This document shows, piece after piece, positions 43,845 to 56,499 of a stretch of DNA of 64,000 nt (the stretch's first letter is position 1; the number at the start of each line of letters is the position of its first letter). The stretch is from Candidatus Latescibacterota bacterium (GTDB taxonomy: Bacteria; Latescibacterota; UBA2968; GCA-2709665): positions 1,018,816 to 1,082,815 of the forward strand of contig OZ240239.1 of the NCBI GenBank assembly GCA_965198095.1. Direction: 5' to 3'. Below the pieces are notes generated by a model. It saw only the letters and a list, made by a program, of their open reading frames with translations. It had not been told where the DNA came from and did no database searches. The position numbers and the translations under genes were made by a program.

Positions 43845-44875
43845 ACGCCCCATATCCGGTAGGAGCCAACTCCGTTGGCGAAGCCGAAGATGGCCGTATA
43901 TTATGCCGCCTAGCCAATGGCCAACTCCTGTTGGCGAAGCAAGAGATAGCGATTTGTTTTGCGCCAGTCCAATGGCCACTCATAGGGTCAGTAGAGGCGT
44001 ACACCGCGATCAGATGGTTCGCCGTCGGGAGCCTGTCCTGAGCAAGCGTCAGCGAGTCGAAGGGACGGCTCCTACCGGATTATTGGGCCCAATGGATTCA
44101 CCGATGTCATAACGTCCCATATCCGGTAGGAGCCAACTCCGTTGGCGAAGCCGAAGATGGCGATTTGTTTTGCACTCATCCAATGGCCAACTCCGTTGGC
44201 GAAGCCGAAGATGGCCGTATATTATGCCGCCTAGCCAATGGCCACTCATAGGGTCAGCAGAGGCGCACACCGCGATCAGATGGTTCGCCGTCGGGAGCCT
44301 GTCCTGAGCAAGCGTCAGCGAGTCGAAGGGACGGCTCCTACCGGATTGTTGGGCCTAATGGATTCACCGATGTCATAACGTCCCAAATCCGGTAGGAGCC
44401 AACTCCGTTGGCGAAGCCGAAGATGGCCGTATATTATGCCGCCTAGCCAATGGCCAACTCCTGTTGGCGAAGCAAGAGATAGCGATTTGTTTTGCGCCAG
44501 TCCAATGGCCACTCATAGGGTCGGTAGAGGCGCACACCGCGATCAGATGGTTCGCCGTCGGGAGCCTGTCCTGAGCAAGCGTCAGCGAGTCGAAGGGACG
44601 GCTCCTACCGGATTATTGGGCCTAATGGATTCACCGATGTCATAACGTCCCAAATCCGGTAGGAGCCAACTCCGTTGGCGAAGCCGAAGATAGCGATTTG
44701 TTTTGCACTCATCCAATGGCCACTCATAGGGTCGATAGAGGCGTACACCGCGATCAGATGGTTCGCCGTCGGGAGCCTGTCCTGAGCAAGCGTCAGCGAG
44801 TCGAAGGGACGGCTCATACCGGATTGTTGGGCCTATTGGATTCACCGATGCCATCGTGATGCGAGGCAGAAAACC
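43845..44875. repeat. Composite tandem repeat block 2 (four L units interleaved with two S variants)
   Basis: Same S and L families as block 1. One S variant carries the AT-rich insert ccgtatattatgccgcctagcc. The block runs from ~220 bp upstream of paralog 3 to the stop codon of paralog 4. Confidence 0.85.
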
Positions 44876-46124: not shown

Positions 46125-46435
46125 CCCCGCATCCGGTAGGAGCCAACTCCTGTTGGCGAAGCAATAGGTGGCGACGTGGGGTGCGCCGATCCAATGGCCG
46201 TCTCCCTGTTGGCGAAGCAATAGGTGGCGACGTGGGGTGCGCCGATCCAATGGCCGTCTCCCTGTTGGCGAAGCAATAGGTGGCGACGTGGGGTGCGCCG
46301 ATCCAATGGCCGTCTCCCGACGGCGACGCAATAGGTGGCGACGTGGGGTGCGCCGATCCAATGGCCGTCTCCCGACGGCGACGCAAAAGATGGCGATTTG
46401 TTTTGCACCGATCCGATGGCGCCGGTTTTGGTGGT
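46125..46435. repeat. Tandem repeat block 3 (about five ~58-bp S-like units)
   Basis: ctgttggcgaagcaataggtggcgacgtggggtgcgccgatccaatggccgtctcc repeats three times, followed by two diverged copies. It starts with the same atccggtaggagccaactcc junction as blocks 1 and 2. Confidence 0.8.
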
Positions 46436-47180: not shown

Positions 47181-47957
47181 ATGTTTATGAATTTCGATCT
47201 TGAGGCTTCAGAATTCCAACGCGCCTGGCTCCAGCGTGCTTTGGGAGCGTTTCACGAAGATGGATGGTTCACTGACATCCTGTATCGCGCCAAAGGTGGC
47301 AAGGAGGCCAATGTTTACTGCTGCAGGGCGAGCCCGGAGACAGGTTACGAATTCGTCGCCGCGAAGGTATACCGGCACCGTAGACTTCGATCCATGAAAA
47401 ATTACGCCGTGTACCGGGAGGGCCGGCATGTCACAAGCGATAGGCGTGAACTCCGGGCCTTGAAGAAGAAGACAAGGATAGGCAAAGCTGTTGAAGATGG
47501 CGCCTGGATAAGACACGAGTACGATACGATGACGCGACTTTACGATATGGGGGCAAGTGTGCCCGAACCTCTGGCAAGAGGCAGCACTGCGCTTTTGATG
47601 GAATATATAGGAGACGAACACGGAGCGGCGCCCCTTTTTCACGAGGTTGCCCTCAAAGAAGACCAGGCCCAGGACTTTTTCGACCGCTTGATGTACAACG
47701 TTGAGATCTTTCTGGCCCGCGACCTGGTACACGGAGACCTGTCAGCTTATAATGTCCTCTATTGGGATGACGATTTCAGGATCATTGACTTCCCTCAGGC
47801 AGTCGATCCGGTATTGAATCCCAACGCCCTCTCCCTGTTGGCACGTGATGTCGAGCGGCTATGCCAGTATTTCTCTCGGTACGGCGTGGAGGCCAACTAC
47901 GTTGATCTTGCAGCAGATCTGTGGGAGAGATTTAGTCGAAGGGAGCTCGCCGTGTGA
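47181..47957 (+). CDS. RIO-type serine protein kinase
   Basis: GKEANVY (the ATP-binding loop), the catalytic loop LVHGDLSAYNVLY and the metal-binding IIDFPQAVD are all RIO1-family signatures. An RBS AAGAGGGA precedes the ATG at 47181. Confidence 0.7.
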   Translation: MFMNFDLEASEFQRAWLQRALGAFHEDGWFTDILYRAKGGKEANVYCCRASPETGYEFVAAKVYRHRRLRSMKNYAVYREGRHVTSDRRELRALKKKTRIGKAVEDGAWIRHEYDTMTRLYDMGASVPEPLARGSTALLMEYIGDEHGAAPLFHEVALKEDQAQDFFDRLMYNVEIFLARDLVHGDLSAYNVLYWDDDFRIIDFPQAVDPVLNPNALSLLARDVERLCQYFSRYGVEANYVDLAADLWERFSRRELAV

Positions 47958-48630
47958 GGCAAAGCAGACAAGAGCAGCGGGCGACCCATCGCGCCGGGAG
48001 GCGGGTGGCTGAACGTCACCGCAGGCGCAGACAATCGCGGTCTCGATGGCGGCCCCGGCCCCCGAGGGCTATCCGAGGCTCACCCTCGCCGGGCTTTTGG
48101 CCCGTGCGAATCACACTTCGAGGTCCATTCCGTAAGCCGTACACGCGTCGGCGAGACGGCCGCGACCGACTTCCTTGCCTGCGTTGTTGGCGCTCCGCCT
48201 GCGCGAGCCACCGAGGGACGGCGCCTCGGATCCTGCGCTCGTCGATCATTCGAGAGAAACCCGGACTTGAAAGGCGCTGATATATATAAAAATTATACCT
48301 TTTCTATACATATTTTTTAACACAAATTGTATGGAACGTTTCCGGGCACCGCAGGACGCGGAGCCTTGGCGTGGAATCAGGGCATGGTTTCGTGTAACGT
48401 TATCTCGTCACTGATGACCACTCCGGACTTCCCGCGTCCCGAGACCGGAATTGCTTCCAGCGCTCCTTTTCACGCCGTAGATCCAGGTCCGAGAAGAACC
48501 GCGGAAAGTAGGCTTCGGCAGGATGGCCGATCCCAATGGCTCGCATCTTGAATTCCACAGCCGAGTTGGGTATACTTCTGTACTTCTCGCCTATCGTCAA
48601 CAATGTTAAGTCACGCAATGGAGGTTTGAA

Positions 48631-48969
48631 GTGGCGAAGAATGAGTATAAATACGGCCGATCTAAAGAGCTGAAGGTTGCTCAGTCTCTGAGGAACCGAG
48701 GTGCCAACGTTAAGACATCTAAAGGTAGCAAGGGTGCAGCGGATCTGACTGCAAAGTTTCCAAGCGGAACCAAGTGGCAGGTGCAAGTCAAATCGACACG
48801 GTCGGGCAACGCGGCCTCCCCTTCTGCCAAGGACACGGGCAGGCTCAAGCAGAGCGCTACAAAGAGGAAGGCAACTGCAGTGATAGCCAAAGTAAGTCCT
48901 AAAGGCGTAGAGTATGAATCTGCCCGGACCGGAAGATCGTTGACCCCGCCGAAATCCCGTAAGAAGTGA
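48631..48969 (+). CDS. Small PD-(D/E)xK nuclease-fold protein, Holliday-junction-resolvase (Hjc)-like
   Basis: 112 aa. KYGRSKELKVAQSLRNRGANVKTSKGSKGAADLTAKFPSGTKWQVQVKS follows the Hjc order G..E...L...G..V.R...SG...DL.A......IEVKS. GTG start with a GGAGG RBS. Local GC is ~50% against ~65% elsewhere. An AT-rich stretch at 48265-48330 lies upstream. Confidence 0.5.
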   Translation: MAKNEYKYGRSKELKVAQSLRNRGANVKTSKGSKGAADLTAKFPSGTKWQVQVKSTRSGNAASPSAKDTGRLKQSATKRKATAVIAKVSPKGVEYESARTGRSLTPPKSRKK

Positions 48970-49382
48970 GCCGCTCCGAATTCGAAGACGAACTGCTGCT
49001 GAAAGCTAAAGTCATCGCTGACCTGATGGAGCAGGGCGCTACTGAGGTAACCATCGTAGGCACTGACATCAGCGTCACCCGTGAGGACTACCAGCAGATT
49101 ACGGCCTCCCCACCTGGCCAGGTCGTGAATATAAACATCAGTGCCGAAGCGAATATACATATAAACCAGCTTGATGAAGCCCTGAATGAACTCCGTTCTT
49201 CGAAGGGTCTAACGAAGGCAAAAAAGAGCGAACTTGATAAGCAAGGGCGGGCGCTACGTAAAGAGCTGACAAAAGGGGAACCGAATAGAACGAATGTTAG
49301 GAAAGTATTGGTTTGGGCCTTGGAAAATAGTTGGGAAGCCTTCAAGAAACTTGCGCCAATAGTACTTGAGAAGATGGGGTAG
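48966..49382 (+). CDS. Hypothetical protein co-transcribed with the Hjc-like nuclease
   Basis: 138 aa. Its start overlaps the upstream stop by 4 nt. No recognisable domain. It shares the same lower GC. Confidence 0.45.
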   Translation: MSRSEFEDELLLKAKVIADLMEQGATEVTIVGTDISVTREDYQQITASPPGQVVNINISAEANIHINQLDEALNELRSSKGLTKAKKSELDKQGRALRKELTKGEPNRTNVRKVLVWALENSWEAFKKLAPIVLEKMG

Positions 49383-49536
49383 AGATTTTTTCCGTAGTCG
49401 TCGTTGAACCGCAAGGCATTCTTAATGTTATGCCCACTCTTGGCCCCGTGGAGCAGGTTGGGCGAAGGGGTGAATGCGCCTGGCGGGAGTTTGGCGCCCG
49501 AGCGGCCGTGAGGCGATTTGGGTGCAACCTCAGTCG

Positions 49537-50523: not shown

Positions 50524-50811
50524 TCACACCGCCCTGCGAAGTTTGCCCACTCCGGACTTGGGCTGAGTCCTGGCGAGATCGTGCAGGGACTGGAGGTTGA
50601 GCCAGAACTCGGGACTGGTGTCGAGGGCCTGTGCGAAAAGCCACGCGGTCTCCGGCGTTACGCCGCGTTTCCCACGAGCGATCTCATTGATGCGTTGCGT
50701 GGGCACACCGAGGTGCCTGGCGAGGGCCACCTGCGTGACGCCGAGCGGATCCAGAAACTCCCTCTGAAGTATCTCGCCAGGATGTGCGGGAATTCGATTT
50801 TCGGGCAGCAT
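50524..50811 (-). CDS. higA: HigA-family (XRE HTH) antitoxin, orphan
   Basis: IPAHPGEILQREFLDPLGVTQVALARHLGVPTQRINEIARGKRGVTPETAWLFAQAL is a typical HigA HTH. No HigB/RelE-like ORF sits upstream. Confidence 0.65.
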   Translation of the reverse strand: MLPENRIPAHPGEILQREFLDPLGVTQVALARHLGVPTQRINEIARGKRGVTPETAWLFAQALDTSPEFWLNLQSLHDLARTQPKSGVGKLRRAV

Positions 50812-51085
50812 AGTGCGTTCTCCAGAAAGGTCGATGGTCATCAGTGAAGCGAACATCGTGGGCCACACCGGAGGACCACCGAAATACGATTCTCCATTGA
50901 TCGTTGACTCGGATGCCGTGGAACCCACGTAAATCTCCCCGCAGTGCCTGCAGGCGATTGCCGGGAGGCGATCTTAGGCTGAATCATTCATGAATCGTCA
51001 CGGTTAGCTGCTTGATTCGCGAGTCAATCAACTCCACCCCGGCACAGTGGCTTGTCGAGCGGTTGAGGAAGGGTGTGTGAAGGTG

Positions 51086-51107
51086 GGGCAGACATTCCTG
51101 TCTGCCC
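51086..51107. repeat. REP-like palindrome downstream of the RAYT gene
   Basis: GGGCAGACA-ttcc-TGTCTGCCC (9-bp perfect stem), extendable to GTGAAGG..CCTTCAC. Confidence 0.6.
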
Positions 51108-51108
51108 T

Positions 51109-51799
51109 TCACATTGTCCTTTTCCCGGAATCCGGAATGCAGACAGAAGAAAGGCGTGCGCCGCCTTTATAGAGCCAATACGCGTCGTTGCGCAGTCCGT
51201 CTTTTGTGGGGTTTTCCGTGATGTAGCGGATGAAGCGCCAATACTGCTTTTCGCTACGCACGATGTGATCATAGGATTCGTCAAGCCAGAACGTCCCGGT
51301 GACGCCTGTGAGTTTGTTGATTTCTCGGGCAAAGGCGCCTTTTATGCCCTGCAGAATCCGCGAAAGGTTGTGGCCTCCCAGGGGTTCCATGAGGAGGTGA
51401 ACATGCGTGGGCATGATGACGGCTGCGTGAAGCCGGTGTCTTTCGCCGTCGAAACGCAAAAGACAGTTCTTGACCGCTTCACGGGCATCTATGTGCGCCA
51501 GGGCACGGGAACCAGAGCCGGCATTGAGCCAGGATTCGATCTTTTCATCGAAACGTCGGTTGTACTCTTTCCACTCGGCGTCTGTCCACGGTTCGGGGTG
51601 GCGCTTGTGCCACAGCTTACGCGCTTCCTGGAAGGTCCCGGGGGATCGCGTCAGCGAGGCGAAAGGTGATCCAATAGATCGCACCGTCTTTATTCCAGTG
51701 GGGGAGACGGCGGCGAGTCGTAGCGTGCCCGGACACAGGATGCAAAGGTTCCGGTTTGAGGGTGATGAGCAGACAGGAATGTCTGCTCCACATTTCCAA
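51109..51799 (-). mobile_element. REP-associated tyrosine transposase (RAYT, IS200/IS605-like TnpA_REP), interrupted by a frameshift
   Basis: The N-fragment (51617-51799) reads RRRLPHWNKDGAIYWITFRLADAIP. The C-fragment (51109-51684) has the HuH motif HVHLLMEP and the catalytic Tyr region YWRFIRYITENP. The two frames overlap at the run ccccgggacc. Confidence 0.65.
51767..51788. repeat. REP-like palindrome at the 5' end of the RAYT gene, inverted relative to the downstream copy
   Basis: GAGCAGACA-ggaa-TGTCTGCTC. The loop is the reverse complement of the ttcc loop of the copy at 51086-51107. Confidence 0.6.
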
Positions 51800-52083
51800 C
51801 CTTTGGTTCGACGTATCGCTTGCTAACCGACACGCATATAGATTTCGAGCATTACGTCCTCCGTCTTATACGCCGTGTCATCAACTGTTATACCCATAGG
51901 CGCTTCTCGTGCTCTTCGCGATGATAACGACGACCTCGCGTCCACGGTTTTGACGCTTTTGTGCAACAAAGGACCCGTTAGGCCGGTGCCACCCAACAGA
52001 AGGACTCGCATTTCCGCTGATGGTCCCTTCCAATTCGCATCGAGAAGGGTCGGCTAACCCCAGCTTCCGTCTTTTCTTCTATG

Positions 52084-55423: not shown

Positions 55424-55600
55424 CTGACAGGCTTTCCCGCGCCCTTCGATACACCCGCGAGACCATTGGGTTATGATCGGCTGAACATCTCGCTGATTGG
55501 GCACTCAGGGACGCGGGGTCTTTGCACTTGTCGCAACTCCTGCGACTCTCTCTTCGAACCCGGACGCCTTCGTGACCGCCGGCGAGGCAGAGCCGGACTC
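55424..55600. repeat. Mosaic repeat copy C (segment Y only, right arm degenerate)
   Basis: gcgcccttcgatacacccgcgagacc...gctgaacatctcgctgattgggcactcagggacgcggggtctttgcacttgtcgcaactcctgcgactctctcttcgaa matches Y of copies A and B. Confidence 0.65.
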
Positions 55601-56420
55601 ACCTCGACAGCGCGGCAGCCGCCTGACCCTTCAATTCCTCGATCATCGCCTCACGCTCCGCTCGGCTGGGGTAGTCCGGGTCGTCCCGGTAATCCTGCAC
55701 CTCGATGAGCTTCCCGCGGTATTCCGTTTCATACAGCATCCGGACGGCGTCGAACAGACCCCGAGATTCCATCAGCCGAATCCTGGCGTCGCCGATCGGA
55801 CCCATGCGCACGGTGCCCGCCTCCAGCATCGGCGGGTCCACCTTGTCGCGCTCTTCCACCTTCAGGAACTCCGCCCGCTGCGCGTTGGCACCCTCCACGG
55901 CGTTGTAAGCGGCCACCTGGGCCGTGTGGATGCTCGTGTTGTTGTCATTGCCGCACCCGATCATCATGATATAGCCATCCAGCGCCGCCAACGCGTTGAG
56001 AATGCCGGCCACGTGGTGCGCGCCGATGGCGGAACTTTCGCTCAGCCGAATCAATCCGACCGCCAGCCGCCCCTTGGCCGCCCACGGATGACGAGGCGGA
56101 TGGGCGCCCCTCAGCACGTCCGGCCGGCGCCAGAACGTGTCGGGGATGAGGCCGATGTTTTTTCGGACCGGCGTCGTCCCGGGGTCGTAGCCCGCCCTGT
56201 TCGACGATCGGACGTCCGTGTGGGACGGCATGAGCAGTGTCCCGGTCTCGCCCACCGTTTCCAACAGCGCATCGATCACCGCGCCGGCTCCGCCTTCCAC
56301 GTGGCCGAGACTGCTCAAAGATGCGTGCACCATCACCACGTCGCCCTGTTTCAAACCCAGCGATCGCAACCCCCGAACGACCAGAGCCTTGTCGACATTC
56401 GATTTCTTTGGTTCGGACAT
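55599..56420 (-). CDS. AAC(3)-family aminoglycoside N-acetyltransferase homolog
   Basis: LGLKQGDVVMVHASLSSLGHVEGGAGAVIDALLETVGETGTLLMP is the hallmark N-terminus of the Antibiotic_NAT family. Start trimmed to MSEPKK. Confidence 0.7.
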   Translation of the reverse strand: MSEPKKSNVDKALVVRGLRSLGLKQGDVVMVHASLSSLGHVEGGAGAVIDALLETVGETGTLLMPSHTDVRSSNRAGYDPGTTPVRKNIGLIPDTFWRRPDVLRGAHPPRHPWAAKGRLAVGLIRLSESSAIGAHHVAGILNALAALDGYIMMIGCGNDNNTSIHTAQVAAYNAVEGANAQRAEFLKVEERDKVDPPMLEAGTVRMGPIGDARIRLMESRGLFDAVRMLYETEYRGKLIEVQDYRDDPDYPSRAEREAMIEELKGQAAAALSR

Positions 56421-56499
56421 GATGACGAACCTCCCTTCGGCTCCCGTGGGCCCAGGGAGACCGAGGATCCCCGAACGACGACTCACGAAATCTTCAGAT

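Follow-up and report, generated by a model that had tools for sequence, protein, structure and literature searches.

The question raised by this locus is what kind of element is formed by two small, overlapping genes in a low-GC segment of the genome of a Candidatus Latescibacterota bacterium (assembly GCA_965198095.1, contig OZ240239.1). The segment occupies positions 48265–49430 of the stretch analysed here, which is 64,000 nt long and is referred to as the window (positions are those of the window unless a contig is named), and its genes are referred to as ORF-A and ORF-B (open reading frames A and B). An earlier note on this DNA, made from the sequence without database searches, had proposed a Hjc-like PD-(D/E)xK mini-nuclease with a translationally coupled partner, and had pointed out that such pairs, when on foreign DNA, are typical of toxin-antitoxin or anti-phage defence modules. 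The reading favoured here, at about even confidence, is that the segment was acquired by horizontal transfer and holds one copy of a two-gene conflict module, as yet unnamed, of the defence or abortive-infection type. The architecture of the partner, its faster evolution, the patchy spread of the genes across domains of life, their foreign composition and the frequent presence of defence and mobilome genes nearby all point to it. The evidence for a defence function is circumstantial. A nuclease combined with a modular effector is a known kind of conflict system, of which this pair would be a new form, and in other lineages it shows a tight and unexplained linkage to ribonucleotide reductase (RNR) operons, which the earlier note did not anticipate.

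Composition and gene layout of the segment

The GC content across 48265–49430 was 50.1%, compared to a mean of 60.7% for the whole window. The low-GC segment and its coordinates were therefore as the earlier note had given them; however, its description of 65% GC surroundings was only a rough one, since the flanks are uneven, with 68.7% in the 300 bp directly upstream, 53.9% in the RIO1 gene and 56.9% in the EamA gene. The GC content at third codon positions (GC3) of the cassette was 0.55–0.57, against a median of 0.735 for the long ORFs of the window, so that both measures agree with the foreign composition that had been proposed. The AT-rich stretch said to precede the genes was also present, the first 66 bp of the segment (48265–48330) having 22.7% GC. 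The features of the segment, with lengths in amino acids (aa) and calculated isoelectric points (pI), are as follows.

48281–48330, no strand: AT-rich stretch, 14% GC, the core of the segment opening; promoter-like hexamers on both strands; strain-variable
48548–48576, plus strand: sigma-70-like promoter candidate TTGAAT-17-TATACT (consensus scan, 9/12 matches), ~55 nt before ORF-A
48619–48623, plus strand: Shine-Dalgarno sequence GGAGG, 7 nt ahead of the ORF-A GTG, as read from the sequence
48631–48969, plus strand: ORF-A, Hjc-fold PD-(D/E)xK mini-nuclease (predicted), 112 aa, pI 11.0; GTG start, basic C-terminal tail
48966–49382, plus strand: ORF-B, 138 aa, pI 5.9; GTG start
48966–49106, plus strand: ORF-B N-terminal adaptor (aa 1–47), predicted as helix, beta-hairpin and short helix; the conserved part of the partner family
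49149–49379, plus strand: ORF-B C-terminal helical module (aa 62–138), the commonest among the alternative C-terminal domains

The two genes overlap by 4 nt (GTGA), and translational coupling is therefore expected. The GTG start of ORF-A agrees with homologues that begin MAKNQYKYG. Because 175 homologues of ORF-A and 73 cluster representatives of ORF-B were found, both are taken to be real genes and not chance ORFs. Two minus-strand ORFs (48400–48786 and 48681–49160) were taken as shadows of the plus-strand genes, the first giving no Pfam match. A repeat search of the window returned no convincing terminal repeats or target duplications around the cassette, and a sequence scan found no terminator-like site at it. 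Scanning with Rfam returned only a tRNA and a sub-threshold match to a DnaX frameshifting element within ORF-B (49201–49263; 20.7 bits against a cutoff of 35, E=0.3), which was probably due to chance.

The gene order in the window is M19 peptidase, tandem repeats, tRNA-Pro, RIO1, ORF-A, ORF-B, EamA (on the opposite strand to ORF-B), HTH_3 and an IS200-like Y1 transposase. In three sister-strain contigs (L006, L007 and L008; 96–98% nucleotide identity) the cassette was likewise located between RIO1 and EamA. The AT-rich stretch was present in L007 and L008 and was missing from L006, whose cassette remains; in L006, the 293 bp that include this stretch in the window (48124–48417) are replaced by a 1.1-kb segment with a minus-strand APH-family kinase gene. 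DNA similarity to the other cassette loci begins only at ~48617 and is confined to the coding region. Since the AT-rich stretch varies between strains and lies ahead of this similarity, it is placed outside the conserved module. The promoter candidate falls within a block (48417–48630) that is 94–100% conserved across the four strains, and an 80-bp piece at 48533 was found in L006 and L008 and is missing from the window and L007. When metagenome contigs were scanned with the EamA protein, neither relatives nor a cassette-free allele or empty site came to light, and no cleavage target was found.

ORF-A combines a Hjc-type fold with an Mrr-type site

ORF-A was modelled with AlphaFold2 from an alignment of 40 sequences, giving a mean predicted local distance difference test score (pLDDT) of 82.7. 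When this model was searched with Foldseek, the best matches in the Protein Data Bank (PDB) were the Hjc structures 1gef, 2eo0 and 2wcw, with template modelling (TM) scores of 0.58–0.70 and E-values of 1.7e-4 to 5e-4; the top matches, 1gef and 2wcw, scored 0.63–0.70 at an E-value of about 2e-4. A profile of the ORF-A family searched against PDB sequences matched Hjc of P. furiosus (1gef) at E=0.0016, and the motif order was that of such nucleases: E13 within a predicted helix (residues 3–22), GSKGAADL at residues 32–39 and QVKS at 52–55. Motif order, modelled fold and profile match thus agree with the Hjc-like PD-(D/E)xK protein of the earlier note, and on the basis of the model the Hjc-type fold can be assigned confidently.

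The Hjc likeness stood for the fold and not for the active site. In the profile alignment E13, D38, Q52 and K54 of ORF-A are paired with E9, D33, E46 and K48 of Hjc, so that three of the four residues of the Hjc tetrad (E...D...E-x-K) are matched while the second acidic residue is replaced by glutamine. This Gln is invariant: E13, S33, D38, W49, Q52, V53, K54, L72 and T82 did not vary in 121 ORF-A sequences, and A1, G9, G24, V27, S30, R57, R71, K73, V84, A86 and S97 were additionally invariant in the 40-sequence alignment. Judged from these alignments, the predicted site is of the Mrr type, PD-QxK, and not of the classical Hjc type. Both Mrr-cat and MspJI use PD-QxK as their catalytic site, and MspJI cuts DNA in vitro (PMC12707154, PMC11037411); the presence of Q52 therefore does not indicate inactivation. 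ORF-A would accordingly be a natural case of a Hjc fold bearing an Mrr-type site.

Beyond the active site, ORF-A resembles Hjc (1gef, 2wcw; PF01870) in size, Hjc also being a stand-alone protein of about 110–125 aa, and in a GRL motif common to both. It differs in its lysine/arginine-rich C-terminal tail, in its dedicated downstream partner gene and in its patchy distribution over Bacteria, Archaea and giant viruses, where a housekeeping gene would be expected throughout a lineage. With Mrr-cat and MspJI it shares the D...QxK configuration; however, it has neither the winged helix nor the SRA reader of type IV Mrr enzymes, and its 112 aa amount to a bare catalytic core with a basic tail. Pfam did not report PF01870 (Hjc) even at E≤10, nor PF04471 (Mrr_cat). 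ORF-A fits neither model and is best called a separate small family within the superfamily.

The 175 homologues from the database search (108–125 aa, 63–79% identity) were either unnamed or loosely called "Holliday junction resolvase", "Mrr" or "HJR/Mrr/RecB". The best Pfam match was to PF18154 (pPIWI_RE_REase), which was sub-threshold (21.4 bits against a cutoff of 26.1, E=2.6e-4). Similarly, PADLOC-DB v2.0.0 gave only a weak match to pPIWI_RE_REase (PDLC02430, E=4e-4), and the matches in PHROGs, NCBIfam and single-sequence PDB searches were insignificant.

ORF-B belongs to a modular partner family

The earlier note regarded ORF-B as a coupled 138-aa protein of unknown fold. The coupling was borne out by the overlap and by conserved pairing at other loci; however, the protein is not an orphan. 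Its apparent orphan status was an artefact of a word-indexed search, which returned only ORF-B itself. The family was revealed by the genes that lie downstream of ORF-A homologues, and by a full HMMER profile search without the word index, in which the 73 cluster representatives (mostly 137–150 aa) were recovered. Partners share an N-terminal motif, K-V-I-x-D-L-x-x-x-G-A-x-E-V, and that from an Opitutales metagenome-assembled genome (MAG) is a full-length relative with 41% identity to ORF-B of the window. Based on these comparisons, ORF-B is a member of a fast-evolving family in which a conserved N-terminal domain of ~45 aa, presumably an adaptor, is followed by a swappable C-terminal domain. 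The classes of partner found among the 128 loci collected from genomes and metagenomes (L numbers) are listed below.

Type 1, with the helical module of the window: 40 unique sequences; no Pfam match
Type 2, about 187 aa: 18 distinct sequences, likewise without a Pfam match
pP_pnuc_1 (PF18165): for example L044 and L068; 70–71 bits
Swt1-like HEPN (HEPN_Swt1): L111; 31.7 bits, cutoff 27.5
DUF4062/TIR_2-like: L116; weak match
Single transmembrane helix: L002; from hydropathy
Multi-pass membrane domain: L018; from hydropathy
Short forms: L004 and L012; from length only

The transmembrane-tailed partners had hydropathy values of 2.5–2.75. The tail of ORF-B in the window is not transmembrane (maximum 19-residue hydropathy of 0.66); instead, this tail, with which the C-terminal module ends, is amphipathic and carries the motif ELxKxxP...W-A-L-x-x-(S/F/G)-W/F...APIVL. 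The AlphaFold2 model of ORF-B was weak (pLDDT 64) and showed a helix, a hairpin, a helix, a disordered linker and four helices, the last four having pLDDT values of 70–82. A structure search with this model returned nothing below E=1. Its rows for ATP-cone and NrdR proteins were weak (probability 0.1–0.2) and were disregarded. No match to PADLOC-DB v2.0.0 was found for ORF-B at E≤10. The C-terminal module of the window type was also found on proteins of 185–273 aa with unrelated N-termini.

One of these, a 273-aa protein with a different N-terminus (L129, 171–992), has a 583-aa caspase-like Peptidase_C14 protein encoded two genes downstream (L129, 1592–3343). A 251-aa protein (P0200) was considered as a nuclease-partner fusion; helix 1 is missing from its nuclease part and stop codons interrupt the frame upstream, and it was not relied on.

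The logic of a conserved nucleic-acid-recognising core with a docking domain fused to swappable effectors is that of short prokaryotic Argonaute (pAgo) systems with APAZ-effector proteins, and of Lamassu, in which LmuB is combined with a variable LmuA. The present module would follow the same logic, with effectors such as TIR, nuclease and transmembrane domains. The parts are unrelated, as the cores of those systems are Argonaute and SMC proteins, whereas here the core is a 112-aa nuclease, the adaptor has ~45 aa and the system is known from its genes alone.

Pairing and evolutionary rates

Pairing was counted over the 106 close loci having at least 200 nt of downstream sequence. An adaptor-bearing partner directly followed ORF-A in 80–82 of them (about 77%), with a gap of -17 to +20 nt, most commonly -4 or +7, and ORF-A was without a partner in the remaining 24–26 (about 23%). 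Between lineages, the number of non-synonymous substitutions per site (dN) was 0.17–0.36 for ORF-A and 0.42–0.72 for ORF-B, the synonymous value (dS) being saturated.

These results bear on whether the pair is a type II toxin-antitoxin system, in which ORF-A would be a toxic nuclease neutralised by the N-terminal domain of ORF-B. Two small overlapping genes are typical of such systems, and the basic ORF-A beside a near-neutral ORF-B, the mobility and patchy distribution of the module, and genes of toxin-antitoxin type nearby (HTH_3 at 50524–50928 in the window, SocA/Panacea elsewhere) would all be in keeping. However, ORF-A often occurs without its partner, the supposed antitoxin carries domains of effector type (HEPN, pP_pnuc_1, transmembrane helices), the nuclease gene comes first, and Pfam, NCBIfam and PADLOC gave no match to a toxin-antitoxin family. 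We consider a toxin-antitoxin system quite unlikely. Of the two functions suggested in the earlier note, the solo copies of ORF-A weaken this one, and the case for the other, defence, is circumstantial; taken as a whole, the interpretation in that note was partly supported.

Distribution

A search of 185,579 species genomes yielded only 31 loci, all of them in MAGs. The bacterial hosts were Opitutales (Verrucomicrobiota), Desulfobacterales, Dehalococcoidales (Chloroflexota), Saccharibacteria of the candidate phyla radiation (CPR), Zixibacteria and Planctomycetota; the archaeal hosts were Methanosarcinales and Aenigmarchaeota, with a more distant subfamily in Nitrososphaerales. The pair was also present in a Nealsonbacteria genome. 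Relatives of ORF-A with 40–49% identity and the same E, D and QVK residues were encoded on two contigs of giant-virus MAGs (L040, 5956–6309; L041, 3885–4211), and a Hyperionvirus protein, likewise a relative, was the best viral structural match (TM score 0.73). No tblastn match was found in isolate phages and plasmids. Taken together, these matches indicate that the family is patchily distributed over Bacteria, Archaea and giant viruses and has spread horizontally.

The Nitrososphaerales MAGs (L025–L039) encode a separate ORF-A subfamily of ~140 aa with 34–40% identity, in which QVK is retained. Its synteny is conserved, with a 300-aa gene on the opposite strand upstream and a ~715-aa gene downstream.

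Neighbourhoods and linkage to ribonucleotide reductase

At many loci without RNR the neighbours were defence or mobilome genes. They included GmrSD, type I HsdR, AbiV-HEPN with a UvrD helicase, DNA methylases, DpdA, an OLD-type ATPase-TOPRIM protein, SIR2, SocA/Panacea, integrases and IrrE pairs with helix-turn-helix (HTH) proteins; these lists are plain observations and not background-corrected enrichment figures. Other copies lie within housekeeping operons, either between nuoF and nuoG or in an ABC transporter operon.

An RNR gene was present at 30 of the 128 loci. In 28 of these it was on the same strand directly upstream of ORF-A, or ran off the contig end just upstream; L128 had only an RNR-like match of 34 residues, overlapping the ORF-A call, and L020 has its RNR gene ~1.6 kb downstream. 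The enzyme is of class II in contigs of the Dehalococcoidia type (e.g. L011, L015, L074, L079, L090, L113 and L124), where the distance from the RNR stop to the ORF-A start was 16–21 nt in 11 of the 16 measurable loci, and is the class III enzyme NrdD in two Methanosarcinales MAGs (L016 and L017). The wider synteny is ftsZ, nrdR, RNR, ORF-A, partner and a gene for an NYN-domain protein, and partners of types 1 and 2 swap at this one syntenic site. The GC3 of the RNR-linked cassettes was 0.24–0.38 compared to 0.46–0.74 for the RNR genes. Pairwise identities of ORF-A and RNR were moderately correlated (Pearson 0.50, Spearman 0.29), with a mean of 0.71 for ORF-A and 0.79 for RNR, and RNR identities ranged from 62 to 91%. 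A truncated remnant of ORF-A was found at the same site in L029. No RNR gene lies near the copy in the window.

Such placement recalls T4-like phages, in which free-standing homing endonuclease genes are grouped around nrd genes; homing enzymes of the PD-(D/E)xK type are also known. The pair might therefore be selfish, ORF-A cutting a conserved target at essential operons and repair copying the cassette in, with the partner as an accessory or passenger. The points in common are a small nuclease gene at a fixed short distance from an RNR gene and a composition unlike that of its neighbours, the GC3 of the cassette being far under that of the adjacent gene. The additional placement behind NrdD, the copies wedged into the nuo and ABC transporter operons, the truncated remnant and the looseness of the correlation by rank would also be in keeping with a homing element. 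Several observations count against it. ORF-A resides in cellular chromosomes, and its partner has a dedicated adaptor and carries HEPN, TIR-like, transmembrane or predicted nuclease domains that are foreign to homing endonucleases. ORF-A has been under strong long-term purifying selection, as indicated by low dN at saturated dS, and the class II and class III RNR genes have no target DNA in common. Furthermore, isolate phages and plasmids gave no matches, and the copy in the window has no terminal repeats or target duplications and is not beside a conserved operon. A homing-type endonuclease was consequently judged improbable.

The same linkage could instead reflect a chromosomal factor of DNA metabolism, namely a structure-specific nuclease that is co-expressed with RNR under NrdR or replication-stress control and processes stalled forks or damage, with ORF-B as its regulator. 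The conservation of the ftsZ-to-NYN gene order over the whole range of RNR divergence would fit this explanation, as would the linkage of ORF-A to two RNR classes that are unrelated to each other and occur in different domains of life, its rate of change, about as slow as that of RNR, its homology to a true Holliday junction resolvase, and the IrrE-like and LexA-like regulators near some loci. The extremely patchy distribution would not fit it, nor would a GC3 that is strongly foreign even within nrd operons, partner C-termini of the kind typical for suicide or defence effectors, exchanged at a single site, or the many copies unconnected with RNR, including that in the window. This explanation, too, was regarded as unlikely. 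A mixture is possible, for example a defence module that has settled in nrd operons for their regulation.

Comparison with named defence systems and points against a conflict module

Among the named systems close to the pair is pPIWI-RE, a strict three-gene operon of a restriction endonuclease (REase), a DinG helicase and the pPIWI-RE protein (PMC3702460). The present pair resembles it in the weak match of ORF-A to PF18154, in having the nuclease gene first and in its patchy spread, which is like that of horizontal transfer. In addition, one partner class has PF18165 (pP_pnuc_1), a domain defined by its association with prokaryotic PIWI proteins. It differs in that ORF-A scores below the gathering threshold and is without the helical or Zn-ribbon N-terminus, and no DinG helicase or PIWI gene was found beside the pair in the window or in the inspected loci. 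As a defining feature of each is absent, the module was not filed under Hjc, Mrr, pPIWI-RE, toxin-antitoxin systems or a system of PADLOC. This is in line with the earlier note, which had recognised no named system.

Several results weigh against a conflict module. No system in PADLOC-DB v2.0.0 matches the pair. The partner is dispensable, given the loci at which ORF-A stands alone, and the conservation of ORF-A is unusually high for a defence gene. The C-terminal module of the window has no recognisable catalytic residues and no Pfam or fold match. Many copies are in core-genome surroundings (ftsZ-nrdR-RNR-A-B-NYN, nuoF/nuoG, ABC transporter), and the copy in the window is itself flanked by the RIO1 kinase and EamA transporter genes, with no obvious defence island. 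It is with these points included that a horizontally acquired conflict module is favoured at the level of confidence given at the outset.

Proposed mechanism and implications

If the segment is such a module, ORF-A would, as Hjc does, form a small oligomer, bind a particular DNA feature and probably cut it. Its ligand may be a branched intermediate, one of replication or recombination, or modified DNA. ORF-B would be produced through translational coupling, and its ~45-aa N-terminal adaptor would dock on ORF-A. The C-terminal domain would be the output, which in the window is the helical amphipathic module and in relatives would be a HEPN RNase, a predicted pPIWI-associated nuclease, a TIR-like domain or transmembrane helices. 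Engagement of DNA by ORF-A could then release or assemble the partner effector, such that the invader or the cell is stopped. What the analysis shows is the gene structure, the fold with its active-site residues, the conserved order of the two genes, the modular build of the partner, the patchy spread, the foreign composition and the neighbourhoods; that the two proteins touch, which DNA is bound, in which direction a signal would run and whether phages are affected are all inferred.

A broader proposal is made only tentatively, and we would not call it probable: that an immune or abortive module, widespread but without a name, has its first example in this pair. In it, an ultra-conserved nuclease with a Hjc fold and an Mrr-type site would sense aberrant or foreign DNA, a 45-aa adaptor would drive interchangeable effectors, from HEPN, TIR-like and pP_pnuc_1 domains to membrane helices and the new helical module, and the whole would be wired into RNR operons in Dehalococcoidia and Methanosarcinales.

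Should the pair be a defence system, it would contribute a nuclease core that is very compact at 112 aa, a new adaptor domain of 45 aa joining this core to interchangeable effectors, and a new helical module, effector or scaffold, which is found with other N-terminal domains as well. It would do so from lineages that have hardly been sampled experimentally, namely sediment Chloroflexota, CPR bacteria, and DPANN and methanogen-related archaea. The placement behind RNR genes, together with the foreign codon composition, makes it possible to ask concretely whether nuclease genes, immune or selfish, take advantage of nrd regulation or target nrd loci. The wiring to RNR, if true, would couple expression to the supply of deoxynucleoside triphosphates or to replication stress; a connection of this kind between nucleotide supply and immunity is not known to have been described.

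Other features of the window and sister strains

Two tandem-repeat arrays flank the M19 peptidase gene, just upstream of tRNA-Pro, and their copy number varies among the sister strains.

43845–44854: tandem-repeat array, 267-bp period, 3.2 copies, with a 55-bp sub-repeat containing the palindrome GCCAAC..GTTGGC
46149–46396: tandem-repeat array, 56-bp period, 4.5 copies, 96% matches

Given the IS200-like Y1 transposase gene at 51109–51684, these arrays may be elements like repetitive extragenic palindromic (REP) sequences. The ~1-kb block that contains the Y1_Tnp gene (50975–51968) is occupied by other DNA with HTH genes in L007 and L008. Between the tRNA-Pro region and RIO1, L006 has a 1.8-kb insertion relative to window positions 47194–47204 (L006, 3846–5655), which encodes a DUF772 transposase. 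The HTH_3 gene at 50524–50928 is HigA-like and has no obvious toxin partner. Further downstream, a minus-strand gene at 55599–56486 matched aminoglycoside 3-N-acetyltransferase (Antibiotic_NAT, E=2.6e-37).

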